A DNA stretch of 64,000 nucleotides from Klebsormidium nitens (taxonomy: Eukaryota; Plantae; Klebsormidiophyceae): the NCBI GenBank assembly GCA_000708835.1, contig DF238763.1:1-64000 (forward strand), read 5' to 3'. The stretch's first letter is position 1; each line of letters opens with the position of its first letter. The notes under the pieces were generated by a model. That model made no database searches. It saw only the letters and a list, made by a program, of their open reading frames with translations, and was not told the DNA's origin. The position numbers and the translations under genes are program-made. This document shows positions 21,407 to 61,110 of the stretch, one piece after another.

Positions 21407-23383
21407 ATGATTCTCATAAAGCACCAGAAACTAGTCTGTAGCATTTCTCGATTCATGCGCAATCACTTCGAACGCGTAGGAATAGGCGCATTTGGCAGAA
21501 CCGGTGAACCTCGAACAGTAGGGATTGCTTTCGAGGGACAGAGGGCCAGTAGTACCTGCCTACCCGAAAGGGACCTGGTAACAGGAAAGCGCTCGTTATT
21601 TCGAGCAAAAGGGAAGGGGCCTAAATCGATGGACTGTGGGCAGAGCTACAAAGGCAAACACCTGCAGGACGTCGCATATCGTAAATGGAGCAGTCTTTCT
21701 TTTTCTAGCTCGGATGAGCTTGGGTCGCCGACCTCGACATGGATTGAAAGGCTGTCTACACTTCAGGGGTTGAGACCAGGGGCGAAAGCGCAAAGGCTAT
21801 GGGCCTTGGTCGACGATATCAACCTATGGGTTGCCGCCTATAAGAAGCTTGCCCCTAATCCAGGGTCTATGACCAAAGGAGGGGCAGGGGGAACGATAGA
21901 TGGCACATCTATGCGGTCACTAAAAGCACTACGAGATAGTGTAGTAGAATGCAAATTTCGATTTGGCACGACTCGTCGAGTCTATATCCCCAAACCACAA
22001 GGCGGCAAAAGACCGCTTGGGATTCCAGAGTTCCAAGACAGGCTAGTGCAAGAAGTGGTACGTACCATATTGGAAGCCATATACGAACCAAAATTCTTAC
22101 CGAATTCTCATGGATTTCGACCAGGCAGATCACAACATACTTGTCTAAAGCAAATAAGAAGAGATTTTCGTGGAACAATTTGGTACATAGAGGGGGATAT
22201 ATCCAAATGCTTTGACAGCATCAATCATGACTTTCTTTTAAGAACTCTAAGTTACTCTATCCAAGATCACAAATTTCTAGCACTCATAAAAACGGGTCTC
22301 CAAACAAACACCCTAATGCCGGAGAAGAATATAGAAAAAACGCTGGTAGGCACACCGCAAGGGGGTGTTTGTAGCCCTCTGCTTTCGAATATAATGCTCC
22401 ATGAACTTGATGTATTTCTTGCGAAGCTGAAAAGAATCATAGATCGGGGCAAAGAAAGAAAAATGAGCAGGAAGTACGGGGCGCTTACAAGCTTACGATC
22501 TCGCGCGAAAAAATCAGGGTCGATTCAAAGATATAGAGATTCGTTAAAGCAGGCTAGAAAGGTCGGATATGGCGACCCTCTTGATGTCCATTTTCGAAGG
22601 CTGAATTTTGTGCGATATGCTGATGACTTTCTTATAGGAATCATTGGCCCACGAAAGTTAGCCACGAGAGTGAAGGAACTAATAAGCCGATTTCTCAGTG
22701 CTAAGCTTAAACTGAAGTTAAGCGCTGAAAAAACGCTCATTACTCGCGCAAGAGGGAGCGACATACCATTTCTTGGGTACAAAATCAACCACGGTCCATC
22801 AAATATGTACACGTACAGACGAAGGTACCAAGGGAAATGGAGAACTGTTCGAGTGCGTAGAGCAGGGCATATACGGCTTTTAGTTCAAATGAAAAAAGTG
22901 ATTGGGAGTTTAGCGTCAAAGGGATTTTGTGACCGATACGGTGAACCAAAGCCCAACTTTCATTCCTTCCAAGATCCGCAAAGCTACACTGTGAGCCGAG
23001 TTGGATCCATCTTACGGGGCATAAGTCACTATTATCACTTGGCAGAGACCAAGCGCAAGTGTGTTAGTCGGGTGTCTTCCATCCTTACCCATTCATTGGC
23101 CAAAACCTTTGCTGCCAAGTTTAAGCTGGGCACGAGGAGCAAGATCTTTGCTCTGGCTGGCAAAGACTTGTCAAGGCCATTGAAGGCTAAGCCAGGGAAG
23201 ACTGCCGCAGGCATTACTGACTTGAAATTGACACAATGGGCTATAGAAGCTGGAGGAAACCTCAAGGGCACTCTCAAAGGGATCCCCTATACGAGTGCGC
23301 GAGATGTGAGCAAGCCAGATCTGCTCCCCTTGCGTCCTCAATGGAAACGAAAAAAAAAGATAGGAATTTCCAAGATCCGTTAG
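21407..23383 (+). CDS. Group II intron reverse transcriptase/maturase (RT0-7 and X domains)
   Basis: PKPQGGKRPLGIP, DRLVQE, SHGFRPGRS, EGDISKCFD, GTPQGGVCSPLLSNI, intact YADD, FLGY, TLAxK-like TFAAKFK. Confidence 0.95.
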   Translation: MILIKHQKLVCSISRFMRNHFERVGIGAFGRTGEPRTVGIAFEGQRASSTCLPERDLVTGKRSLFRAKGKGPKSMDCGQSYKGKHLQDVAYRKWSSLSFSSSDELGSPTSTWIERLSTLQGLRPGAKAQRLWALVDDINLWVAAYKKLAPNPGSMTKGGAGGTIDGTSMRSLKALRDSVVECKFRFGTTRRVYIPKPQGGKRPLGIPEFQDRLVQEVVRTILEAIYEPKFLPNSHGFRPGRSQHTCLKQIRRDFRGTIWYIEGDISKCFDSINHDFLLRTLSYSIQDHKFLALIKTGLQTNTLMPEKNIEKTLVGTPQGGVCSPLLSNIMLHELDVFLAKLKRIIDRGKERKMSRKYGALTSLRSRAKKSGSIQRYRDSLKQARKVGYGDPLDVHFRRLNFVRYADDFLIGIIGPRKLATRVKELISRFLSAKLKLKLSAEKTLITRARGSDIPFLGYKINHGPSNMYTYRRRYQGKWRTVRVRRAGHIRLLVQMKKVIGSLASKGFCDRYGEPKPNFHSFQDPQSYTVSRVGSILRGISHYYHLAETKRKCVSRVSSILTHSLAKTFAAKFKLGTRSKIFALAGKDLSRPLKAKPGKTAAGITDLKLTQWAIEAGGNLKGTLKGIPYTSARDVSKPDLLPLRPQWKRKKKIGISKIR

Positions 23384-23607
23384 AAAAGCTCCGCTGGAGA
23401 GGTCTTCGAGGTAGAACCAGCCTTATGGCTACGTGTGCGGTATGTGGCAGCACGGATGAGGTCGAGATGCACCATGTAAGAGCCCTGAAAGATCTAAAAG
23501 GTAGGGACTTCGTAGAGCAACTCATGATCGCTGCCCGTAGGAAGCAGATTCCGCTATGCCAAGAGCATCATTTTCAAGCCCACGGTAGGAGGAAGACGAA
23601 AGAATAA
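23359..23607 (+). CDS. Zn-finger/HNH endonuclease domain of the intron protein, in the -1 frame after an A9 run
   Basis: CAVC...EMHHVRALK...PLCQEHH motif typical of the En domain; frame entered at GAT 23359. Confidence 0.85.
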   Translation, partial: DRNFQDPLEKLRWRGLRGRTSLMATCAVCGSTDEVEMHHVRALKDLKGRDFVEQLMIAARRKQIPLCQEHHFQAHGRRKTKE

Positions 23608-26959: not shown

Positions 26960-27940
26960 ATGAACTTAAAGTTTACAACGGTAAGAATCCATTCATCCGC
27001 TTTGTTACAATACCGTACTTCAACTTACCAAAAAAAAAGAGCAGAAAATAGTTCATTTGGTTTTGAACTTAATGAGATTAATATTTTACATAGTATAGTA
27101 GGCACACAACTTGGGGGTGTGGCCTCATTGACTTCCGGTCTAGTTTTAATGGCAGGAAGACCCCCTCAAGATCCTTTAGACAAAGGAAAAGGGAAGATTG
27201 AGTGGGTGGAAGAAAAGTCCCAACCACCATCTCTTTACCAGGGATCTGAAGACAAGAGGGAGGAAATGACTTTTGGAACGCCAGAACCATATAACCCAGA
27301 TCGTGACTTTGATGGTCCTACCGATCCGCAATTGGAAAATGCAATGTTGGATTTAGATGAGGGTGGAGTTGTATCAGCAGTTGCGTCTACGGCAAAACGA
27401 ATTCGAAGGGGTTTTTTTGATGCTCCACTTGCCGAGGGGTTGCCATCACAGGGCAGCACCTATTCTCCTAACAATCAAAAGGATATGGAGGAGGAAGATT
27501 TCGTCTCTCCTCCGGGAAAAAACGAGAATTCTAGGAATCCATCGGGCGCTTTAAGCTTCGTTTCAAGTTCAATATCGAATTGCATACGCGATCATGATAT
27601 TGATCAAATTCGGAATGAATGCGTCACGCATATACAAAATTTGTGGGCGTGTTCGTTTGCCCTTTCGATCAATGTGCTTTTGCGCAGAGGACTTCCAACT
27701 CTGCTAAAAAAATTTCCAGAAGGATCACCCTTTGCAATTCAATACCCCCGGCTTTATAGGTGGTTGCAAAACCTTTGTGACACTGTACAAAAAAATGGGG
27801 ATACTGTTATGCTAGTTTTTTCTGCGTATATCGCTTTTTCTGCGTTTCTCTTATGGGCAAATGTATGGTCTTTGGTAAACATTGCTAAAAAGACATACGA
27901 CTTCTATAAGAAATATAAGAAAAACAATCCCAACGCTTAA
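26960..27940 (+). CDS. Hypothetical protein orf326 (acidic/proline-rich middle, C-terminal hydrophobic helix)
   Basis: 981-nt ATG-started ORF free of the dispersed repeats; no recognisable family motif. Confidence 0.5.
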   Translation: MNLKFTTVRIHSSALLQYRTSTYQKKRAENSSFGFELNEINILHSIVGTQLGGVASLTSGLVLMAGRPPQDPLDKGKGKIEWVEEKSQPPSLYQGSEDKREEMTFGTPEPYNPDRDFDGPTDPQLENAMLDLDEGGVVSAVASTAKRIRRGFFDAPLAEGLPSQGSTYSPNNQKDMEEEDFVSPPGKNENSRNPSGALSFVSSSISNCIRDHDIDQIRNECVTHIQNLWACSFALSINVLLRRGLPTLLKKFPEGSPFAIQYPRLYRWLQNLCDTVQKNGDTVMLVFSAYIAFSAFLLWANVWSLVNIAKKTYDFYKKYKKNNPNA

Positions 27941-29888: not shown

Positions 29889-30557
29889 ATGAAAAAATAT
29901 TGAAAAGGAGAAATCAATCAAACTCCAATCTTAGATATCCATCAAGATTCTCTTCCTTTATCGCTCCAGCAACGAATACTCGATCCTGTTATTGATTATG
30001 CCCCCATTGCTTTATCCGTGGTTGCTGGAGCTGTGGGGGTAGACCTACTGCTGTGGTATTTTAGACGTAGGTCAGACCTTGGCAAACCAAGCTTAGACGA
30101 TAGTAAACCTAAGAGTTTTCTCATTGTTTCCGCGGAGAGTAAAAACGAGACGATTGGGAGCCAAACGCCTGCTGATGGAAAAGAAAGCCTAGCCCAAACA
30201 GAGATAACACAACACGTTGTTCATGCTTTTGGGAGATATTCGAAAGGGCACGCAAAACGCATATTTCAGTATAGAAATGATCCGGATCCGGCAACCAAGC
30301 GCGAAAGCGAGGAACAGTATCATTTTCTTGTAGGTGGGAACCGTCTAATTGGGAATATGCGTGAGGGGGGATTTTCTTTAAACTTGTTGATAAAACAATG
30401 TCAAAAAACTCTAAATCCCAGCTCCTCTATTACTGGTTTGTCTGATTTGGATCTTCAAAAGAGCAATATTGTAAACGTCCACTATCAAAAAATGTTTCGT
30501 CAACAGAGCTATTTGCCAGAGGAGCTATTGTTTGAGCGCTTTCATTGGGCTTTTTGA
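29889..30557 (+). CDS. Hypothetical single-TM protein; ATG 29889 is followed in frame by TGA 29901, then the frame is open 29904-30557
   Basis: Open frame of 217 codons with hydrophobic IALSVVAGAVGVDLLLWYF then RRR; start uncertain (GTG 30018 or upstream). Confidence 0.4.
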
Positions 30558-36513: not shown

Positions 36514-36879
36514 ATGCTTTATATTATGGGTAAAAGAATGGAACCTTCAAAGAGTGTGCACATTGCTTTGCAAGCCATCTTTGGTATAGGGAAAACAAAA
36601 GCTATGTTGATCTGCAAATTAATAGGCCTTAGCCAATCCGTAAAGATCAATCAGCTAAAAAGAATGCATGTAGAACAAATTAGACGTGTTTTGAGCCGTT
36701 ATTTTATAATTGGTTCAGATTTAGAAAGGTTAATCCAACAAGATATTCAATCATTTATAAAGATTGGATGTTACCGCGGATTTCGCCACAACAGTCGCCT
36801 CCCCTGTCGTGGACAACGAACCCATACAAATGCAAAGACTTGTCGACGAGTTCACAACAGTACACCATATAGACGATGA
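36514..36879 (+). CDS. rps13: Ribosomal protein S13
   Basis: IFGIGKTKA, CYRGFRHNSRLPCRGQRTHTNAKT. Confidence 0.97.
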   Translation: MLYIMGKRMEPSKSVHIALQAIFGIGKTKAMLICKLIGLSQSVKINQLKRMHVEQIRRVLSRYFIIGSDLERLIQQDIQSFIKIGCYRGFRHNSRLPCRGQRTHTNAKTCRRVHNSTPYRR

Positions 36880-39161
36880 TACACGCTACACTACAAATGA
36901 AAACAAGCTCTCATCGGGCATTAAGAAAGAAAACCCTGGCCGTAATCAAAGACTCTTCGGGAAAACCTATATTATTTTGTAGCCTTACCCCACGTTCTAA
37001 AAAAAGAAATAAAGGGGCGAAGAGCCACACTTTCAAAAAATGTGTAACACAGTGGGGCACGCCAGTGCCATCAATGCGATTTCTTCCGGTAGAGAGTGGA
37101 GGGAAGAGTCTCTCCCCGAAGGGGATTGGAGCAAAGAGAAAAAAAAGCCTTTTTTTTTCAGTAAAGCCGTGGGCGGTCGCGCAGGGAGTGAAGCAAAAAA
37201 AAGACTCTTTTTTTTCAGCGCAGGGCGGGTCGTTAGCTACCCGAGGTAAATGGAAGCAACAAAGCAAGTCGCTTAATGGAGTGCAGCAAAGATATGCCCA
37301 GAAGCGGACGCAGCGGGGCGTGAAACGAACAGCCGCATCCAAATGGAATGGTTTTGCTCCTTTTTTGGCTCTCCGCTCTTCTAAACCGCAATCCCAAAGG
37401 CGCCGTAGACTTATAGTCTCTTTTTTAAAAGAGCTAGCCTCAAGACAGAGCACTACACTCGCCTACGGGGAGCGAAGAGCCACTAATAGAGCTGTAGCCC
37501 CCTGCTTCGCTCCAATCCCCTTCGGGGAGAGGCTCTTCGCTCCAATCCCCTTCGGGGAGAGGCTCTTCGCTCCAATCCCCTTCGGGGAGAGGCTCTTCGC
37601 TCCCCGCAAGGGATTGAAGTGGCTCTACGCTCCACTTCCAGTCAATCTAGATGCTCTAAACACCAGCAATAAACGCATGACGCATCCCGCGCTGCCACTC
37701 AATCATTACGGTTGCGTGCCTATCCTCTCTCCAGATCAAACCCCTTCAGGCGCTGACCTTTTGAAAACCTTGCGGGGTAATCTTAGCCCTCGCTTGCGGC
37801 ATAAATCTCTTGACTTAGAAGCTAAGCTGCTAGGGTTAAAGTTAGGAAAGGCTTGTATATTCAAAGGCATTCAGAGTATTGATGTTGTAATTCAAGAATA
37901 TACCAAGCCAACTTGTTTGTTGTTACAGGGTTTACGCATGGCTGGAGTTCGATTCAATAGATTACGAATCTTAAGAGCAGCTGATTATAACTATGATGTC
38001 AATTCTGTATCAGACCGCGAAATGAAGCGGCTAGGACTAGCTCGAGAAAACTCGCGCCCTTTCTTTCCGTCGCTTAAAGGGAGTAACTTTGAGAAACTAT
38101 CAACCCCTAATCCGCACGTTCTATTCCCCTTTGAGAAGAGCAACTTTGTTAGTGGGGCTAGCGCCCCCCATATCATTGCACTCCCGGGGGGGAGTGATTT
38201 CATTCCACTCCCGGGGGGGAGTGATTTCATTCGTGGCACTAGCGTGTCCCACTATGTTCCACTCCCTATCGAGAGCAATTTCATCCCGCTCTCAAAAGAA
38301 ACAAAAATAGTTACAGGAGGGAATAGGAGTCATTTTGTTTCTTGGCTGTTAGACGTTAGTCCGAAGAACGAATTGTTGCAAATTTTAGTAAAATCTCGCC
38401 TTATTAAAACATCTACTCGTCATACATTCTGGCAAGCAAGAAGTTTCAAGTATAAGATTGAAAAACTTTTATATAGAAAGAATCGAAGAGGAGCTATAAG
38501 AGAAAGAGTCTATTGTCCTCTTATTCAAAAGAAGGCTGTCAAAAAATGGAAAGCTTTTACTGATTTTAGCACTGCTTTGAAGACAAAAGAGCAAGCTTTT
38601 GTACAGCGCACTCCTTTTTATCGATTGCGCCGCAGTTTTGCTCCTTTTCTTTCAAAAAGCTCCTCTACAACCTATCATTTACTTCCCAAAGCTCGAAAGA
38701 GGGTCAAAAAAAGAGTAGCATGGCTAAGACCTAAAAAATTTCATACTTTTGAAAACTATGGCTCTTCGCTGCAAAAGTCAGGAAGCTTTCAAAAAAGGCC
38801 ACGCTTTCGTGTCAATCAAACTCGTATAATTGCAAACGTTCAAAACACACTCAATAATACAATCATAACAATAACAGATCGCTTTGGAAACACCAAAGTA
38901 TGGTGCTCTTCTGGCTCAATTGGGCTCAAAGCTTCGCGCCGCTCGACAAATTATGCGGCTCAATCTGTTGCAGAAGCTGTGGCAAAGAAATGCAGAAAGT
39001 TAGGAATTCGACGTGTAGAAGTTAGAGTCCAAGGCGTTGGTTATGGAAAACCGTCCGCCTTGAAGGGATTACGAATAGGAGGTCTTCAAATCAAGCGAAT
39101 TGTAGATACAACTCCTAAACCGCACAATGGCTGCAGAGCTCCAAAAAAGCGTCGCGTTTGA
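36876..39161 (+). CDS. rps11: Ribosomal protein S11, 761 aa: canonical domain at the C-terminus, a degenerate split S11-like copy and repeat-derived inserts upstream
   Basis: C-terminal NNTIITITD...RRSTNYAAQ...PHNGCRAPKKRRV; ATGA overlap with the rps13 stop codon. Confidence 0.9.
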   Translation: MIHATLQMKTSSHRALRKKTLAVIKDSSGKPILFCSLTPRSKKRNKGAKSHTFKKCVTQWGTPVPSMRFLPVESGGKSLSPKGIGAKRKKSLFFSVKPWAVAQGVKQKKDSFFSAQGGSLATRGKWKQQSKSLNGVQQRYAQKRTQRGVKRTAASKWNGFAPFLALRSSKPQSQRRRRLIVSFLKELASRQSTTLAYGERRATNRAVAPCFAPIPFGERLFAPIPFGERLFAPIPFGERLFAPRKGLKWLYAPLPVNLDALNTSNKRMTHPALPLNHYGCVPILSPDQTPSGADLLKTLRGNLSPRLRHKSLDLEAKLLGLKLGKACIFKGIQSIDVVIQEYTKPTCLLLQGLRMAGVRFNRLRILRAADYNYDVNSVSDREMKRLGLARENSRPFFPSLKGSNFEKLSTPNPHVLFPFEKSNFVSGASAPHIIALPGGSDFIPLPGGSDFIRGTSVSHYVPLPIESNFIPLSKETKIVTGGNRSHFVSWLLDVSPKNELLQILVKSRLIKTSTRHTFWQARSFKYKIEKLLYRKNRRGAIRERVYCPLIQKKAVKKWKAFTDFSTALKTKEQAFVQRTPFYRLRRSFAPFLSKSSSTTYHLLPKARKRVKKRVAWLRPKKFHTFENYGSSLQKSGSFQKRPRFRVNQTRIIANVQNTLNNTIITITDRFGNTKVWCSSGSIGLKASRRSTNYAAQSVAEAVAKKCRKLGIRRVEVRVQGVGYGKPSALKGLRIGGLQIKRIVDTTPKPHNGCRAPKKRRV
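37505..37603. repeat. 3 x 30-nt unit CTTCGCTCCAATCCCCTTCGGGGAGAGGCT inside rps11 (translated FAPIPFGERL x3)
   Basis: Direct reading; same unit occurs in intergenic spacers. Confidence 0.93.
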
Positions 39162-43137: not shown

Positions 43138-43215
43138 GATTTCATTCCACTCCCGGGGGGAGTGATTTCATTCCACTCCCGGGGGGAGTGATTTCATTCC
43201 ACTCCCGGGGGGAGT
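43138..43215. repeat. Tandem array, 3 x 26-nt unit GATTTCATTCCACTCCCGGGGGGAGT
   Basis: Direct reading; reverse complement of the 25295 unit. Confidence 0.92.
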
Positions 43216-43316
43216 GATTGAATTCAAAAAAATCTCTTTTTTTATTTCATTCGTGGCAATGGCGTGCCCCACTTTCTTCCACTCGCCTTAAAGGCGAGTG
43301 ACTTTGTTCTTTTTGG

Positions 43317-43397
43317 TACTCGCTACCGGACTTGAACCGATAACCCAGAAGGAGCAGATTTTGAATCTGCCGTGTTTACCAATTTCACCAAGCGAGT
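43317..43397 (-). tRNA. trnL: tRNA-Leu(CAA)
   Basis: Class II cloverleaf, anticodon arm GCAGA-TTCAAAA-TCTGC. Confidence 0.95.
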
Positions 43398-43398
43398 T

Positions 43399-43479
43399 TG
43401 CTCACTATCGGACTTGAACCGATAACCTAGAAGGAACAGATTTTAAGTCTGTCGTGTTTACCAATTTCACCAAGCGAGC
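43399..43479 (-). tRNA. trnL: tRNA-Leu(UAA)
   Basis: Class II cloverleaf, anticodon arm ACAGA-CTTAAAA-TCTGT. Confidence 0.95.
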
Positions 43480-44064
43480 AAATATTATTAAAAAGTCTAT
43501 TGTTATAAATTCTATTCTCTTGCTCCAAAAACTATAGAAACTATGTCTTTGTAAAACTTTTATTCAGTGCTTCGTACAAATAACATTTTGTACAGAATCA
43601 ATTGGTTTTTACCCACTAAAGGGTTGGTTTTGATTTGAAAATCGATAAAAGAAACACTTTTTTATTGAATTGACTCTGAATTTTTTTTCGTCGAATCAGT
43701 CTCTATTGAGATATAATTACAGTTTTAATATTTTGTGCAATATTGCGGGGAATAGAAAAAAACAATTCAAAACTTTGCTCTTTTTTTCTGTATTTATACA
43801 TGGAATTGGTTTTTTCTTTTGAATCGGTAATCCTTTTTCTACTCAGGTGCATTCCCAGGGCTATAGCTTAAAAAAACAATGCACTTCCCTATGTGCACGT
43901 TAGAAATAAACAGAGAGCAGGCATATTTGTTCAAACAAAAAAGATAAGAGCACAGCATAATTCTTTTAATGATTTTGAAACCAAATGTTTGATTGACTCA
44001 AAACGAACAAGTCTTTTTTAATCCTTTGATTCTAAAGGTTGTGGTAAGTTTTCTTTCGCTACAA

Positions 44065-44138
44065 TATGCTTGGAAAGATTCGAACTCTCAGCCCCCAAAT
44101 CCGAAGTTTGGTGCTCTATCCAATTGAGCTACAAGCAC
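44065..44138 (-). tRNA. trnR: tRNA-Arg(UCG)
   Basis: Cloverleaf with anticodon arm CCAAA-CTTCGGA-TTTGG. Confidence 0.93.
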
Positions 44139-44439
44139 AGACAATAGTGATTGTTGATTTGAGTGAAAAAAAAGAATGAATAGACAGATAGGCTATTAAT
44201 AAAAAAAAGAAAATCATTCTGTAAAAAGAAAAATGGATTTATAATAAAAAAAGTGTTTTTTCTCTTTGATCCGCTCGCTGCATAAAGTTGCTCTACGCTT
44301 TTTAATGCAGTCAATTTTGTATAAGAGATTGCTGGAAAGCCGTGATCCAACCAAAATTCTCACTAAGTAAAAGAGAGTTGAATAAGCATCGGATTTTAGT
44401 TTTATTCATTTTTTTTTCAACATATTTGTTATCAAATCC

Positions 44440-45430
44440 ATGAATTACAACACTATCGAATTGTGTGCAGGATCTGGGGGTATGAGTAGTGGTTTTATAA
44501 ATGCTGGATTTGTCCCTTTGTTGCTGAACGACAAAGACAAGACATGTTGTAACACCCTCCAAAAGAATTGTCCTAATATTCAAGTGATATGCGAGGATAT
44601 GTCAAAGATCGATTTATCTCAATATAAAAACCGTACCGATGTACTCGTGGCAGGTCTACCTTGCCAGAGTTTTTCAACTGCTGGAAAGAGAGGAGGGCTG
44701 GAGAGTTCTCCAGGGAATCTCGTATATGAGTTTATTCGGCTCGTGAAGGAGGTAAAGCCTCGTGTTTTTTTACTAGAAAATGTGAAAGGATTGCTCTCGA
44801 TTCAGAAGGGGCAAATATTTCAAATGCTTATTGAACTCCTAAGAGTCAACGACAAATACAATGTTTACCACAAGTTGTTGACTTCATTATGGAGTTCCTC
44901 AGAAGCGCGAAAGAATTTTTTTCGTCGGGGTTCGCAATGATATTCCCGAGCTCTATGAATTCCCGTTCCCACTGAATAGAACCACTCCCTTAAGAGATGT
45001 TTTACTGGGCTGTCCACCAAGCCCAGGCTATGAATACCCACAATGGAAGCGTGAGATTATGGATCAAATCCCAGAAGGTGGCTGTTGGATACACCTACCA
45101 CAAGAGATTCAGAAGTCTTACCTAGGTCGTTCTTACGGCGCAGGTGGGGGGCAGCGCGGGGTCGCCCGTAGATTGAGTATGGATGAGCCTTGTCTCACAC
45201 TGACGACAAGCCCGTGTCAAAAACGAACAGAGAGGTGTCATCCTCTTGAGACTAGACCTCTGAATGTTAGAGAATATGCACGAATTCAGACTTATCCCGA
45301 TGATTCCTTCTTTTCTGGATCTCTAGCAAGCCAGTATCGGCAGATAGGAAACAGTGTGCCTGTTAGCCTGGCCTATTATGTTGCATTATCCATTAAGAGA
45401 CTACTCAATGCTAATGCATGTGTGTCTTGA
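44440..45430 (+). pseudogene. dcm: DNA (cytosine-5)-methyltransferase of a Type II R-M system, with one frameshift near 44880-44888
   Basis: Motif I ELCAGSGG, IV LPCQSFS, VI ENVKGL; the shifted frame is open 44882-45430 and holds VIII YGVPQKRERIFFVG, the TRD, IX RPLNVREYARIQTYPD and X QYRQIGNSVP. Confidence 0.92.
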
Positions 45431-45907
45431 GATTCTCTTTTATCACTTGAATAATGCGTTTATAATTGGAATCGGGTGCAAAAATCAATCGTAAAAGAAG
45501 CGTGCCCGACATATATCTTATGCTTCTACTATTTTATCTTCTGCTTTCCCGTTCTGGGCATTTATCACACCATAGATCACTGTATAGTCTGTATGTTGAA
45601 TTGCAAAGGCCTTTCATTTTTGATAATTATGTTTTCTAGCCGATGAATTATCGGTGTTCAATGAGTTTTTTAGCTCTATAACAATCTTTCGCTCGTGATT
45701 GATCAAATCTAGGCCAGACGGATCGCCTTGTTTTCGATTTTGCCATCCTTCTGCACAACCTATAACTCCTTGCCATATCTCCCCAATGCGCATCTGAAGG
45801 TTTTTGACCTTATGACAAATCTGGTATTCACTCTCTGGAATGACTTCGTCCAGCAGTATATCTTTCGTTGAACGTGTTCTTATACGGCGACTCCAAATGC
45901 CTTGCAT
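45411..45907 (-). pseudogene. Type II restriction endonuclease remnant, Eco47II/Sau96I-like PD-(D/E)xK
   Basis: LQMRIGEIWQ...GW...GLDLIN...IVIELKNSLNTDNSS; in-frame TGA at 45616-45614, read-through KAFAIQHTDYTVIYGVIN, frameshift near 45522, then IRYMSGTLLLRLIF to TAG 45411; convergent 20-nt overlap with the MTase. Confidence 0.75.
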
Positions 45908-47083
45908 CAATTTTGAAATCTTTTCTTTAATCTTTTTAAAAAAATCTTCGCTTCTGTCAAACTGACGAGATCTGTTCTGGACTTTTTTTTTTCTATAGTT
46001 CGCTTTTGTTTACGCTTCTTTTTTTCCCATATCCTTAATAAAAAGATTTCATGGGAGCTTTGGTGAGGAGTCTGCTGCTCCCTTCTTCGTTCTTTGAGTC
46101 TTTGAGCTCTTAAAATTGTCGGGCTATTTCCTTTATAATTCATCTTTTGAATTCTTTTTTTATTGAAAAAACATCGATTTTCTGAATTTTTGTATTTCTT
46201 TCTGTAATGAGCCATAAACACATGTCTTGAATAGAGTACAAAAGACTGTACTTTTTTGCGAGAGTGACTCTGTGATATATTCTTATTCGAAAGAAAAAGT
46301 GAATGGATCTAATTCAAAAAGATTGCAGGAACAACGTCACTGCCCCAAAAGAGGAGTAGAACAATGTCACTGATCGAGTTGTTAACCCTGCTGGGCTGAG
46401 AAAAAAAGTCTTATTGAAACGTTAATAAGGTATGGTAGACGAACAATATTTTGAAGGAAAAGCACTCTTTCTCATTCGTACAAGCCTAGATTTCGCTTTT
46501 GAGTTTAAAACAATTCCAATTCATTCAAAGATTCTAGAATCTACACGTGTTGTGAAATCAATTCTATCTTGCTTGAGAAAAAAAACAATCGTTTATTGAT
46601 TCTTTTTTTGAATAAAAAGGATTTGAAAAACAAAGATTTTTGTAAAAGAGTAAAGCAAGTGCCCTCCATCTCATTTGACTCTCGGTTGAGAAGAAGTGAT
46701 TTGGAGTATTGTTTTCCACCGAAAAAAAATCAATTGATTTTTTATTGGATATATTTATTCAAAAAACCTTTGATTAAAAAGCATTCTTTTTATTCAAAGA
46801 ACGAGTAAAATGACTTATGGGGCTAGCGTTCTCTGCTCCGCTCCAATTCCCTTCGGGGAGAGGCTCTTCGCTCCCCCTCTTAAAGAAGATTGGAATGAAA
46901 TCAGGAGAATAAGAGAAGTTTGAGAAGTGAACGAAGCAGCGCACTTGCATCTTATTGCGATGAAAAAAAGAAAGATTGCTTCCTTTCAAATTGAATATGC
47001 TTTTTTCTCTTTAAAAATGATTGATTCATAAAGAAAAGCCATGCCGTTTGATTTCAAATCGAGCTAGCTCTCACTCAGTCAAT

Positions 47084-47157
47084 CGCGGGGTGGAGTAATT
47101 GGTTAGCTTGCCGGGCTCATGACCCGGAGTGTGTGGGTTCGAGTCCTACCCCCGCAC
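47084..47157 (+). tRNA. trnfM: Initiator tRNA-fMet(CAU)
   Basis: C1:A72 mismatch and GGG/CCC pairs at the base of the anticodon stem. Confidence 0.93.
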
Positions 47158-48504
47158 AATCGAATGCGAGCGTATTGAGAGCAAAGAATTTCGAATAAAA
47201 CGAGAGCAAAATTATTGCCTTTCTTTTTGAAATAAAAAGCCAATTTTCTCTATTCTTAAACAAATTCTGCATACAACTGTCAATGTATTGAATTGTATAA
47301 TATTCAATCCAAAAGCATTCTTTTTTTTGTTTACAAAATAATAAAGATCAACTTTTTATAACTATCAATTGAAATTTCATCGAATTCCAATAAATAGAAG
47401 ATGCTAATTGTTCCATCTGTTTGAATAAAATAAAAAGTCTTTTTATTATTCAAAACAAAATTTTTTTTTCTTTTTTCATTTTTTTAGAATAACGGCGTTA
47501 CGCAGTTAGGAGCAACAGCTGCATTCACGTAGCCACTCTCTCCCGAAAGGAAAGGAAGGAACCGCACTTTTCGAAAGTATAGGGGCAAAAATCCTCCCCC
47601 TAACGGGGAGTGAGATTTGTTGAATTTTTTTTCAATTCTTTTAGACCATTCAAAAACTTTGTTTTTGAATAGAAAAGAAAGAGCGAATTGTATCCAAAAA
47701 AATGAGTTTGATCCTGGCTCAGAATGAACGCTGGCGGTATGCCTAACACATGCAAGTCGGACGCTGTGCTCTTTTGCTTTATGCAATTGCATTCGGCGCA
47801 AAGAGGCACGGGGTGGCGAACGGGTGAGGAACGCGTGAGAATCTACCAAGCAGACGGGGTCAATCCCCCCTAGCCTTCTTGAATCGAGAAGAAAAAAGCT
47901 TCATTCGAAGCATGCTTGAATCTTGTTCCACTCCCTTTTGGGAGTGACTTTGTTCCAAGAGGAAGTTTACTTCGAACAGCGCTGCTTGATGAGCTTGCGT
48001 CGGATTAGGTAGTTGGTAAGGAAATGGCTTACCAAGCCAACGATCCGTAGCCGGCCTTTTCGGGTGATCGGCCACACTGGGACTGAGATACGGCCTAGAC
48101 TCCCACGGGAGGCAGCAGTGAGGAATCTTGGACAATGGGCGAAAGCCTGATCCAGCAATACCGAGTGGGTGAGACGAAGGCTAATTAGGTCGTAAAGCCC
48201 TTTCGTCGAGAAGAGACAATGACAAGACTCGAAAAAGAAGCCCCGTCTAACTCCGTGCCAGCAGACGCGGTAATACGGGGGGGGCTAGTGTTATTCAGAA
48301 TAATTGGGCGTAAAGGGTACGTAGGCGGTCAGATTGAGCTCAGACCTAAGCCATAGGCTTAACCTATGGACGGTCTTGCAGCTGTTCTGTCTTTGAGTTG
48401 GATAGGGAAGAGTGGAATTTCTAGTGGAGAGATTAAATTCATAGATATTAGAAGGAAGGCCGGCGGCGAAGGCAACTCTTTAGATCCAGACTGACGCTAA
48501 GGTA

Positions 48505-57074: not shown

Positions 57075-57794
57075 TTATTCGGTAGGTTTGACAGACTTTT
57101 GATTGTCTTTATTGTTTGTGTTTAAAGCCGTTTCTACAATTTGGCTAATGGCTTTTGGATCTACAACGAAACGGTCATAACGTTCAGTAGTTCTTATGTC
57201 TTTATGACCTACAATTGTTTTGACGTTTTGCAATGGGACAACCCTTAAAAGTCTTGGAATGGAATTGATCCGGAATGAATGACTCGTTAAAATGAGATTA
57301 AACTTTGAAATTGCAGGTTGCATAAAGCGATTAATGGAGCGAATCCACTGATCTTTGCTTATTTGTTTTGTTGAATTCTCGGCGCTAGCGAGTGGTTTAT
57401 TATATTGCTGCCTAAAGACTGTTTGAATATCAAGGTCGAGCTTTTCTAGCATTTCTTTTGCGCTTTTTGTGAGAACAACAACCCTATACTTGCCGGTTTT
57501 TGATTGGGAAACCTGAAATGATCCGTGTCGCAAACCAGATTCAATATCTTTGAGTGTAAGCGACGCTGCATCGCTAGCACGTAAGCCTAAAAATCTTAAA
57601 AGAGTAATAGCTATTCTAGCTCTTGCCCAAACATATCTATTAATGTACAACGCTCTTTTCAAAGACATTAAGAAGTCATAAACAGACTCTGAAGCAGGAT
57701 CCCGCAATGGCATTTCTTTCCGAACAGTTCGCTTTGGTTTTGTTTCCAATCGTTGCTGTATTTGTTCTAAACGATTGATTCTTTTATCATTCAC
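57075..57794 (-). CDS. Tyrosine recombinase/integrase, apparently intact (GTG start)
   Basis: GLRASD (Arg), KTGK (Lys), HSFR (His-x-x-Arg), VGHKDIRTTERY (His, catalytic Tyr). Confidence 0.92.
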   Translation of the reverse strand: MNDKRINRLEQIQQRLETKPKRTVRKEMPLRDPASESVYDFLMSLKRALYINRYVWARARIAITLLRFLGLRASDAASLTLKDIESGLRHGSFQVSQSKTGKYRVVVLTKSAKEMLEKLDLDIQTVFRQQYNKPLASAENSTKQISKDQWIRSINRFMQPAISKFNLILTSHSFRINSIPRLLRVVPLQNVKTIVGHKDIRTTERYDRFVVDPKAISQIVETALNTNNKDNQKSVKPTE

Positions 57795-58116
57795 TCCCTT
57801 TTGTTTTATAGCTCTCGGAGCTGCTTGCTATAGCTGAATAACGCTTTGTTTTTCTTAAACGATTCTTAGGAGACCTATTTGTTGGTTCCCACGCTTCAGT
57901 AGCTTCTTTCTTCAATTTATGGATTTGAGTTGAAAGAATGTGGGGAACTTCACCTTTCTTTCTATTCCAATGAGCAACAACTTTAGGTGCTTTATGCTTT
58001 TGTTGTGTTAGTGCTAAGTGCAATTGAGTAGGTGGGACATTTTGAAGTGTAGTTCCTTTCAAATCCTCATTAAAGGAATGTATCTTTTCTTTTAAGAAAT
58101 TATCTGCTTGCCTCAT
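57787..58116 (-). CDS. orf109; resembles the tail of an rve integrase and is probably the detached 5' part of the recombinase gene
   Basis: NFLKEKIHSFNEDLKGTTLQNVPPTQLHLAL aligns by eye with SFVQQAIEKYNSKPHRHLEGLSPNQMEEAL of the opposite-strand gene. Confidence 0.45.
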   Translation of the reverse strand: MRQADNFLKEKIHSFNEDLKGTTLQNVPPTQLHLALTQQKHKAPKVVAHWNRKKGEVPHILSTQIHKLKKEATEAWEPTNRSPKNRLRKTKRYSAIASSSESYKTKGSE

Positions 58117-58176
58117 AGATTGAAATGTTAGCGTCCACTTGCCCGCCTTTCTAATTTGCTATTTGAATGTTTTTAA

Positions 58177-59696
58177 ATGACTATTCAAATGAATGAAAAC
58201 AAAAACGAAGTTAGGAACTTAATAATGCAAAAGTATATCTCGATTCGTACAAATTATGCTATTTGTATGGATATAACGAATTTAGGCGTCTATGGTCAAT
58301 TGGTTGTAGCAGTAGATATGGCAGCAAGACATATTGTAGGCCATTGGTATCATAATGAGGCGATTACTACTGAGCATGTTTGTCAGACTCTAACACAACT
58401 AACCAAAAAAAGAAGTTTTTTGCCTAAGATAGAGATTATACAAACGAACCGGGGATCTATTTTCACTAACCCAGAGTATTATGATTGTATAGATCAATAC
58501 AAAATACTAAAGAGTAAAGGATCTTCTAAGGGACATCAAAATCAAGTAGTTGAAAGACTTTTTAGAACCCTTCAAAGCATACTGCGCGTGCTCATTTGTC
58601 CTGGTTGGAAACAAAAAGACCCAGATCCACTCAAGCAACTCCAGTTCTCTTCCCAAGAGATGGCTTCCTTTGTTCAGCAAGCGATTGAAAAATATAACTC
58701 AAAGCCCCATAGGCACCTAGAGGGGCTTTCACCCAATCAAATGGAAGAAGCTCTCTTTTTAAAGCATGGTAACGAACACCCCCAAGAGCCTACCCAATTG
58801 ATTGTAAAAAATGAGAACTCTTTGCTTGCTCAAGAAGCCATCGAATATAGAAGGCAGGTTGCTCAGCAATTGAAAGGTGACTGGTTACGCTTTTTTATAG
58901 AATGGAAAAAGGATCAAGAGAAACTTCAAAAACAAGTTATAAACCAAATTGAACAAAGGAAAGAGCAAGTTATTGCCCGCCTTACCCAAACCGCCAAAGA
59001 AGCTGAAGCACGTGCCGAAGAGATTCAAAGCCAATACAAGGTCTCGTAAACATCTCGAGACACAGCAAAAAATTCACTACTTAAGCGAACAAGCTCAAGC
59101 TGCGCAACGAGAAAAACAAGAGAAAGAGCAAAGAAAGCTTAAAAAGAAGCAAGCTAAAAAGCAAGAAATAAGGCAAACCGTCTCCGCTGAGGAGTTTGAG
59201 TTTATTATAACTCTTGTTAAGTGTAGGGGAAATGCTAGACCTCGAAGGCGCTTAGCACTCGTACTCCTTTTTCTTACCGGATTAAGAGTTTCTAATTGAC
59301 TTCTCTTTAAAGTAGCCCATGGCAGTGAGTTATTCGAAAAGGGCAACACCCACATACCCCTTATTAAAGGCGGCGAAACTCAATATCCACTTCAATTAAG
59401 CGCTAAAGGGAGCAAAATGCTGCTTCAGTTTAAAGACGATTTTCTTGAGCTTTCTAAGCATAAAAGTGGTCATATGCTCCTTTTCACTACAGCAAAAGAC
59501 TTTAGTAAACCTATTGCTAGGGAAAACTTTGATAAAGAGCTCAATAAGATACTAGCCATAGCTTCTGCTCAACTTGAAAAGCATCTTAGAACTCATAGTT
59601 TTAGAGCGACTATTATTGCTAAGTTATTAAAGTATACGGAAAGGCATGTCGTGGCTTCTATGAGACACTAGTCCCAGTACACGCGTTTATGTGTAA
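58177..59696 (+). pseudogene. Fused DDE (rve) integrase - coiled coil - tyrosine recombinase gene, decayed
   Basis: rve core MDIT / TNRGS (D to N) / VVERLF and YN..PH..L..SP; frameshift near 59040; TGLRVSN then TGA 59297; HSFR; TAG 59669 and a frameshift before STRVY (catalytic Tyr at 59688). Confidence 0.85.
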
Positions 59697-59882
59697 GGCG
59701 CTAGTCTTCCCAAAACCCTCCCGAATAACGTTTTCAAACGGGTAAATACCCCTCAATAAATTATCCAATTGTGATACGTTTTCGCGGGTTTCGTTGAATC
59801 TCGTCGATTTTTAGGGGTAGTGGGTGCATATTTTCAATAAAGCCCGAGAAGAAACGAAACCTTAATAATTTTATAAAAAAAA

Positions 59883-61110
59883 ATGAGCAGACCTTTATAT
59901 AACACATACAATGAGAATAGCTTTGAGCGCCTAGGATCATCGAATTCGCTAATTGATACATTCTCAGAACTTGAAGTGGGTCGGGAGGTGTACTTTCGTA
60001 CCTACGTAAAGTTTCGTCGTCCTTTGACGCTAGTCCATAGTCAAATGTTCACCCCAGAGTTGGGCGCGCTGTCGTTGTTGGAGTTAAGCAGCGATAGCGA
60101 CTGCTTATTTACTTCGTTAGTAAACGCGGGGTTGGGGAGTCAATTGATTAATCATTTTGCCGAATGTGAAAGCTCCGGGATGGATTCTACCGATTTAGAG
60201 ACTGGCGATGTGCTAATGGAAAGAATTTTTCGGAATGTTAATCAAGGAAAGGGAGGTCATTTGTCTGAGAAAGGTCTTTGTTCAGAGTCAAACACCCTTT
60301 ACAAGTTGAAAAGCGGTATAAGAGATTTGCATCGTGTTTTGAAATTCGATAAAAAGTTTTTGGCTAACATTCTTGAGGGTCTTAAGTCTGGGTTGTGTAA
60401 GCTTGCTCGGGTGGATCTATGTATAGACCTAAGCGAGGACATTATGCCTTACGTTTCCCATGGCATAAAAACGGGTCAATATAAATGGGCGGCACCCCTT
60501 TGCTTTCGGTTGGTTGGCGGGTGAACGGGTAGAGGGCGCTGCGGGGCGCAATAGTAAACTTTTTAAAGATTTTGAGAATAAGCAGTTGATTCTAGATTCG
60601 GTATATTTTGGCAATTCTAGAAAAAGCGATGAAGTTGCTGTGTTTTATAACAGGCGAGAGGAGCGTAAAGACAGAGCTGAGTCGAGCTGGGCGCCAAGAA
60701 GTAGGGTAGAAGTTCGCATATATCCTCGCACAGAAGAAACTGAGAAGGTCGCAATCTCAATTTTGGAAAGTTATTTGGATGAGACAAATGGTTGGCGCGC
60801 ACGAATCCCGCACTTTGGAGAAGTGCTTTGCCGATGCGTAATGTTTACTACAAAGAGGCGCCCCGCATCCCCGCTAGACTTGAAAGATGTGGCTCCCTGG
60901 TGGCAGTTGCTTTTACGTACGCTGATGGTTGGTTCAAAAGACTTTGAGTTTCCAAATGAAAAAGGCTTGTTAGAGTCCAATACTACGCAGCGGGGGGTTA
61001 CGGGCTTTCTGCCTACCATAGAAATGCCTAAAAAGGGCAGGGGGCGCCTTAAAAGTTCAAAAGACAAAAACACACGTAAGTCAGGCTCAGGCCGCAAAAA
61101 AAATTTCTAG
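59883..61110 (+). pseudogene. Rep_trans-like rolling-circle replication initiator/relaxase with one frameshift near 60486
   Basis: LARVDLCID (RxDLAxD-like), DSVYFGNSRKS (TxYxGSRxS-like), FYNR (catalytic Tyr), W...RVEVR. Confidence 0.6.

Follow-up and report, generated by a model that had tools for sequence, protein, structure and literature searches.

The 64,000-nucleotide stretch of Klebsormidium nitens DNA analysed here (the window) carries a C5 cytosine methyltransferase gene and an Eco47II-family endonuclease gene that converge on each other, and both are broken. Judged by its sequence, the pair appears to be a real type II restriction-modification (R-M) system in streptophyte mitochondrial DNA (mtDNA), dead in the window copy and whole in relatives. 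Our main reading, held with a probability of roughly two in three, is that the pair was derived from a giant virus, has GGNCC as its predicted target, is whole in some relatives, and would have worked in the mitochondria long enough to purge its sites.

The gene pair and its mitochondrial setting

The window is mitochondrial genome in the standard code, with nad, cox, atp, cob, ccmF and ribosomal protein genes as well as 21 tRNAs. As listed in Table 1, the pair lies between two native tRNA genes, and the gene order rps4, trnL, trnL, trnR(ucg), ORF, trnM, rns equals that of the published Klebsormidium map, given as rps4, trnL, trnL, trnR(ucg), orf209, Mf, rns in the accessible part of the source (PMC3814193). 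Physical linkage to the mtDNA genes was also found in independent data: a contig of run X5 (43937-44501) links trnR(ucg) to the methylase start, one contig of run X6 (44794-47300) links both genes to trnM(cat), and trnR(ucg) lies upstream of the methylase in the independent metagenome contig L001 too. Furthermore, a Klebsormidium flaccidum record encodes a 200-aa protein with 100% identity over 97 aa to a piece of the window nuclease. A contaminant, a misassembly or a nuclear copy is largely refuted by these joins, by a cassette depth equal to that of the flanks and by the same place on the independently sequenced Klebsormidium map, and has become barely credible, even though no single contig or long read examined spans 43200-47300 and the whole copies described below come from low-depth metagenome contigs. 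The published mtDNA maps of Entransia, Chlorokybus and Chara are without the cassette.

Table 1. Coordinates of the gene pair, its flanking tRNA genes and the second foreign island in the window
Feature	Position	Strand	Remarks
trnR(ucg), native mitochondrial tRNA, left flank of cassette	44064..44139	-	ARAGORN
C5 cytosine methyltransferase pseudogene	44440..45430	+	PF00145 on both pieces; whole relatives 331 aa
Tail-to-tail overlap of methylase and nuclease genes, 20 nt (stops overlap)	45411..45430	.	Sequence; convergent also in 38/38 viral loci with close nuclease
Eco47II-family PD-(D/E)xK endonuclease pseudogene, entire	45411-46143	-	Convergent with methylase; 2 frameshifts and 1 stop
Nuclease core, catalytic GLD...ELK motif kept	45411..45907	-	Pfam PF09553, 5.8e-9
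Nuclease N-terminal extension, about 79 codons from ATG at 46143	45908..46143	-	In frame with core in 8 relatives
trnM(cat), native tRNA, right flank	47084..47157	+	ARAGORN; Mf on published Klebsormidium map
Tyrosine recombinase	57075-57794	-	Phage_integrase, 8.3e-15
rve integrase/transposase	58177-59049	+	Second foreign island
Second integrase fragment	58949-59299	+	Second foreign island
Two ORFs of second foreign island	59883-60524, 60514-61110		No Pfam or PHROGs match

The GC contents of the two genes are 44% and 39%, and those of the flanks 31% and 34%. The pair is indeed less AT-rich than its flanks, as claimed in the preliminary description, but this contrast is a weak sign of foreign origin because the cassette GC is close to that of most other 1-kb bins (36-51%). 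The cassette is free of repeats, as had also been noted, with 0 masked bases in 44440-46143 (7318 of 64000 in the whole window). No direct or inverted repeats marking an insertion were detected in the cassette flanks, and promoter-like sites were at chance level (7 vs. 5.3). In two runs guessed to be RNA, the depth was patchy (1-6) and genes and spacers were covered alike.

Several other features of the window were recorded. A second foreign island follows rnl/atp9 at 57075-61110 and contains 0 GGNCC in 4036 bp; its two terminal ORFs carry motifs that presumably recall replication-initiation proteins. Integrase genes are located downstream of rnl in Roya and Chaetosphaeridium as well, according to the accessible text of PMC3814193. 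A 761-aa ORF (36876-39161) has an rps11-like domain at its end and a long repeat-filled N-terminal part, and rps3 and ccmF have long insertions too. The ORFs at 26960-27940 (326 aa) and 30018-30557 (179 aa), which flank atp1, gave no convincing Pfam or PHROGs match.

The methylase gene is split by a 5-bp deletion after 44881, a single frameshift, into pieces of 166 aa and 182 codons, whereas runs X6, X12 and X13 as well as L001 contain the missing 5 bp. Both halves match Pfam DNA_methylase (5.7e-43 and 9.7e-24), and the quoted motifs CAGSGG, PCQ, ENV, QKRERIF, the TRD, RPLNVREYARIQ and QIGNSV were all recovered in the translations; their motif numbering is assumed. Whole relatives of 331 aa are P0001 (98% identical) and P0002 (92%). 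Based on the profile matches of P0001 (PF00145, 2.2e-75; TIGR00675, 228 bits with a cut-off of 101; PADLOC MTase_II, 4.5e-92), this is a separate C5 methyltransferase gene with conserved motifs, split in the window.

On the opposite strand, the nuclease ORF matches RE_Eco47II above the cut-off (5.8e-9), and its translation includes QMRIGEIWQ, GLDL and IELKNSLNTDNSS. The D, E and K of the catalytic centre are invariant in the nuclease alignment A3. The whole 166-aa core of P0163 matches PF09553 at 1.1e-13, and P0164 keeps the catalytic residues and matches PADLOC REase_II at 2.4e-7. These matches identify an adjacent, separate endonuclease gene with a PD-(D/E)xK centre. The convergent nuclease and its overlap with the methylase agree with what was first described. 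Sau96I likeness of the pair is presumed as well. A model of the whole core (pLDDT 76) shows a restriction-enzyme-like alpha/beta layout. Foldseek of the nuclease model gave no PDB match at E<=0.001, the top one being EcoO109I (E 2.5e-3, above the threshold of 1e-3), and otherwise only weak viral PD-(D/E)xK matches. No solved relative was found by sequence, and NCBIfam and PHROGs hold no model for the nuclease.

The nuclease extends further than first drawn, because an extension is in frame with the core in relatives (P0151, P0152, P0153, P0155, P0160, P0164, P0166 and P0168) and because the 15-20 extension residues next to 45907 align with the first helix in unplaced homologues. Its gene is thus predicted to start at the ATG at 46143, 236 bp beyond the limit of 45907 given earlier. 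The extension is basic, is absent from the five unplaced relatives aligned, shows in-frame indels in the eight relatives above and is out of frame in P0162/P0163.

Three lesions interrupt the nuclease, namely a TGA at 45614-45616, a 4-bp deletion after 45522 and an out-of-frame A-tract at 45983-45992. Read-through of the TGA was considered and ruled out: the trnW anticodon is CCA, and rps3 and rps13 end in TGA. The A-tract varies in length and interruption among the copies; the frame is on in P0151, P0160 and P0164 and off in the window and P0162. This variation may reflect a switch that works by slippage, or no more than a mutation hotspot. In five relatives, some of them more diverged from the window than P0164, the nuclease ends at the codon corresponding to 45614-45616 (NYQK/NSQK), where a true stop and a contig end are not told apart. 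The shared end codon hints at a recurrent loss at one A/T-run.

Lesions, whole copies and selection

In a DNA run that likely derives from the source sample, 44257-46248 was recovered as one contig with 0 differences at a depth of 75, and seven neighbouring listed contigs had depths of 57-84. Because this source-like run is identical, contains the locus in one contig and has a depth like its neighbours, the four lesions are real and not assembly slips. Neither reading frame is whole in the window genome, and the earlier term "complete" cassette has to be replaced by a double pseudogene.

Whole frames were found in relatives. P0001 (331 aa) and P0164 (256 aa, from the extension through the C-terminus) are each encoded on a 72,522-bp ENA contig, their pairing on one contig being deduced from this equal size. 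Eight runs (X4, X5, X6, X7, X11, X12, X13 and X14) were compared with the locus, and coverage gaps of low-depth runs were not counted as absence. Run X12 gave one 1556-bp contig (44477-46023, depth 3.3) that has none of the three core lesions, although its listed differences leave the nuclease extension out of frame, and X13 carries the same repairs on short contigs. Run X6 is without the methylase frameshift and the 4-bp nuclease deletion, with the TGA and the A-tract unchanged from the window. In X11, 1.2 kb including the whole nuclease is gone. No repair was seen within the parts covered by X4, X5, X7 and X14. Taken together, these copies can be read as a natural series among Klebsormidium: whole, nuclease-dead, both dead, and deleted.

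The methylase relatives form two close clusters with 15 members, and 9 of them have 331 aa. Among the 14 Klebsormidium-type nuclease proteins, one (P0164) has an uninterrupted frame running from the extension to the C-terminus. Among equal-sized contigs, several also combine a whole methylase with a nuclease that is broken (P0131/P0154 and P0132/P0168). An orphan methylase could leave such a record: only the methylase would have been kept working, with the nuclease as a passenger and GGNCC lost by mutation at the methylated C or by selection against methylated sites. The uneven counts (9/15 vs. 1/14), the mixed contig pairs and the end codon shared by five relatives fit this explanation. It is nevertheless unlikely in view of the low nuclease dN/dS reported below, the in-frame indels of the extension, the whole P0164 with its catalytic residues kept, and deamination products that are not in excess.

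Contig L001 contains trnR(ucg) and the same pair, broken otherwise: 4 bp are lost in the TRD, and the nuclease has repeat insertions, deletions and stops. Between the window and L001, dN/dS was 0.17 for the methylase (327 codons, dS 0.39), 0.23 for the nuclease core (152 codons) and 0.32 for the extension (65 codons), with dS of 0.32-0.42 overall. Since both copies are pseudogenes, these values overstate the ratio while the genes worked. Being well below 1, they show a signature of purifying selection on both genes. For dating of the loss, 27 X12 differences and 10 X6 differences were polarised with L001 and gave too few changes.

It is improbable that the viral DNA was inert cargo which never worked in mtDNA, the GGNCC scarcity being an unrelated compositional trait of the lineage. 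Such cargo would agree with the breakage of both genes in the window and in L001 and with the loss in X11. However, dN/dS of 0.17-0.32 over a dS of 0.3-0.4 at an orthologous mitochondrial locus and the persistence of whole copies argue against inert cargo, and further evidence on both sides comes from the word counts below.

Origin of the pair

Homologues were searched with an alignment as the query, P0001 alone having found nothing in viral contigs. The methylase is 50-59% identical to its best 80 viral loci, of which 24 are GVMAG-named, and 46-54% identical to its best 80 prokaryote loci from a scan of 9 of 64 parts; cultured phages reach at most 36% and plasmids up to 49%. A nuclease neighbours the methylase in 63 of the 80 viral and 42 of the 80 prokaryote loci. 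All 38 nuclease neighbours with at least 100 bits are viral, and all are convergent as in the window; the prokaryote layouts are mixed, with 17 of 42 convergent. The nuclease profile of this neighbour search included five unplaced kin of the query, and plain BLAST agrees, with best scores of 107 bits (viral) vs. 62 bits (prokaryote) for the nuclease and 419 vs. 340 bits for the methylase. A 381-bit "prokaryote" methylase match, L082, groups with viruses. This 3.2-kb contig, binned as an actinobacterium, holds a convergent viral-type pair and is probably misbinned. In another viral contig (L033:5001-6776), a methylase and an Eco47II-like nuclease are contained in one 592-codon ORF.

The nuclease tree comprised 65 rows, for which 34 of the 50 viral nucleases and 22 of the 41 from prokaryotes were picked at random. 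The Klebsormidium nuclease fell in a clade of 23 viral and 7 unplaced rows with a support of 99, and its grouping with prokaryotes was rejected (AU p 0.004). The methylase was placed on the viral side both in a 185-row FastTree and in a 51-row IQ-TREE, the latter with 20 of 77 prokaryote rows and L082 omitted; a position next to prokaryotes was not rejected (AU p 0.63). Both genes sit on long stems of 0.6 changes per site, and no direct sister of the Klebsormidium pair was present among the viral and prokaryote loci scanned. The neighbours of two GVMAG hits include genes for a RING finger protein, a dual-specificity phosphatase, a dNK and an ATP-dependent ligase. Klebsormidium spp. are known to carry nuclear NCLDV genes (accessible part of PMC5294986).

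Hence the donor of the pair was likely a giant virus, which is favoured over a bacterium; of the earlier suggestion of a capture from a virus or bacterium, the horizontal capture itself is supported. Direct donation of the same system by an unsampled bacterium or archaeon is highly doubtful. The methylase AU value, the long stems of both genes, the convergent layout in part of the prokaryote loci and the mostly unplaced top database matches (P0003-P0030) leave room for such a donor, but the nuclease AU test, the short nuclease type and higher methylase identity on viral contigs (53-59%, many of them GVMAG-named, vs. 46-52% in prokaryotes), and the genes beside the two GVMAG hits point to a virus.

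GGNCC sites and comparison with known systems

Eco47II cuts GGNCC, as stated in the accessible part of PMC10305163, and GGNCC had been named in advance as the test word in the preliminary description. All word and site counts refer to the 64-kb window, not to the entire mitochondrial genome. In the whole window, GGNCC was seen 34 times against 79 expected, the lowest of 256 XY-N-ZW words (next ratio 0.74), with GGWCC (0.48) and GGSCC (0.47) equally low. The unique intergenic DNA (26.8 kb, repeats masked) had 3 sites against 22.4 expected (ratio 0.13, next 0.74; Poisson 4e-7), and none of 200 dinucleotide shuffles went down to that count. Synonymous shuffling of 26 core gene pieces (19.5 kb) gave 18.6 expected sites against 8 seen, with 1 of 1000 shuffles as low; half of these 8 sites are forced by Gly-Pro. 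In coding DNA only, GGWCC was seen 2 times vs. 8.7 and GGSCC 6 times vs. 9.9, the latter with the 4 Gly-Pro pairs forcing sites. GGNCC was the lowest of 256 words in the window, intergenic and coding sets alike. Its frequency was close to normal in the rRNA region (0.82), and neither the cassette nor L001 contains a single site. A reverse-transcriptase/maturase-like ORF in two frames lies in the cox2 intron (21407-23607), where 6 GGNCC sites occur in 2 kb; its retained GGNCC would fit a later arrival.

Control mtDNA was sought in viral contigs, where an atp1 query gave none and a cob query gave 77 loci, 1 of them mitochondrial. Over these 77 petB/cob loci of similar GC, GGNCC was seen 738 times vs. 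754 expected, and the lowest single ratio was 0.48 among the 29 loci with an expectation of at least 10. The mitochondrial control is one fragment, L262 (7 vs. 6.4), and none comes from a sister genus. Of the cytochrome b loci in IMG/VR (L197-L273), 76 of 77 are without any other gene of mitochondrial type; the exception is L262, a mitochondrial fragment with cox2, cob, nad7 and rps4 from a GVMAG-named record. GGNCC was the lowest word also in 79 prokaryote loci with related methylases (0.47). In the 31 viral loci whose nuclease is closest, GGNCC was only mildly depleted (0.81), and CCNGG had a lower value (0.59).

Under the dinucleotide model, GGCC (19 vs. 57.9) and CCNGG (29 vs. 45.8) were low too in the unique intergenic DNA. 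GGCC was normal in coding DNA (36 vs. 34.7). The somewhat low counts of these two words in intergenic shuffles, and mitochondrial controls that include no sister genus, would be compatible with inert cargo, but the most depleted of the 256 words is the target of the Eco47II family itself. No surplus of GGNTC/GANCC, the signature of 5mC deamination, was observed (133 vs. 126.7). The GGNCC scarcity is likely a scar of past enzyme activity. Together with the PF09553 match it supports the proposed Eco47II/GGNCC family call, and past activity on mtDNA, which had been suggested, gains apparent support from the scarcity and from dN/dS of 0.17 and 0.23.

Returning to the viral R-M reading, an ancestor of Klebsormidium would have received a convergent viral pair in its mtDNA, next to trnR(ucg), and have expressed it. 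The methylase would mark and protect GGNCC on mtDNA, and the nuclease would cut unmarked GGNCC in methylase-less mtDNA copies, or in foreign unmethylated mtDNA or viral DNA. Cutting of unprotected copies may maintain the pair through addiction, and might serve as a defence in which foreign DNA is destroyed. Selection would then have removed the cuttable sites, and with few sites left the nuclease would be lost first and the methylase later, repeatedly, lineage by lineage. This order is proposed because the series from X6 to the window and the counts of whole methylases and nucleases fit it.

A bolder version is tentative, and we hold it somewhat below even odds: some living Klebsormidium strains may run a working giant-virus-derived mitochondrial R-M system which purged GGNCC genome-wide and is selfish or defensive among mtDNA copies, and whose nuclease may be switched on and off by the A-tract. 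If true, and as far as could be found, no such system would have been known before from the green-plant lineage, nor a restriction-avoidance footprint from any organelle genome. Mitochondria very rarely acquire working genes, and the only mitochondrial R-M system tested so far is bacterial in origin and comes from an uncultured protist. The Klebsormidium pair is carried by a model relative of land plants that can be cultured, in which enzyme-directed 5mC in plant-lineage mtDNA, the persistence and death of an addiction module in a multicopy organelle, and the arrival of viral DNA in the mitochondrial matrix are all testable. In addition, a methylase with a history of function in streptophyte mitochondria could be turned into an organellar tool.

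The methylase half has been published before. Turmel et al. (2013) described a methylase alone in Klebsormidium mtDNA, orf209, and suggested a vestige of viral infection (PMC3814193). Orf209 is a C5 methyltransferase that resembles bacterial and phycodnavirus enzymes and occupies the map position of the window methylase; in the accessible part of that paper it is a lone gene of 209 codons, and neither a nuclease partner nor a 331-aa form, strain polymorphism, selection or a loss of target sites is mentioned. In our literature search, which left most subscription papers outside, no report was found of the Klebsormidium nuclease, of intact pairs or of organellar GGNCC avoidance. Among such rare systems, the pair stands out by its likely viral donor and by a predicted target that has become scarce across the genome.

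Lone organellar DNA-modifying genes have been described as dam/dcm in Aureococcus mtDNA (PMC7936722) and as methylases or nucleases in plastids of Bryopsidales, Pedinomonas and Microthamnion (PMC5888179, PMC4524492). As far as the accessible parts of these sources go, such genes are foreign and often split or strain-variable like those of Klebsormidium, but are unpaired and of separate origins. Giant-virus R-M pairs are covered by PMC12700378 and PMC13196603, whose accessible text does not name GGNCC or Eco47II. The giant-virus pairs (chlorovirus systems; GVMAG loci L017, L027, L052 and L057) are convergent, with a nuclease about 40% and a methylase 52-59% identical to those of Klebsormidium; their loci show little GGNCC avoidance, and the Klebsormidium pair differs by its residence in an organelle genome. 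In bacterial Eco47II-family R-M systems, the same two Pfam families (PF09553 and PF00145) are adjacent as in Klebsormidium, and a plasmid example has an annotated Eco47II nuclease beside a methylase 48% identical to ours. The bacterial nucleases have 230-280 aa and are 30-37% alike over part of their length, whereas the Klebsormidium nuclease belongs to the shorter viral subgroup and bears the basic extension.

Paired organellar R-M genes are rare, as the preliminary description held, but have a precedent: Milner et al. (2021) described an HpaII-type pair of flavobacterial origin that works and is encoded by the mtDNA of katablepharids (PMC8099122). In the accessible part of this source, in which Klebsormidium is not mentioned, the katablepharid HpaII/MutH-type systems likewise combine an mtDNA type II nuclease with a cognate C5 methylase and are horizontal, patchy and degenerating. 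Their own target is absent from the cassette as in Klebsormidium, which is reported for the 2,240-bp cassette only. The katablepharid systems are flavobacterial, have CCGG and GATC targets, and are active in E. coli and yeast (PMC8099122), while the Klebsormidium pair is of the predicted Eco47II/GGNCC type, likely came from a giant virus, resides in a streptophyte and is accompanied by a genome-wide loss of sites.
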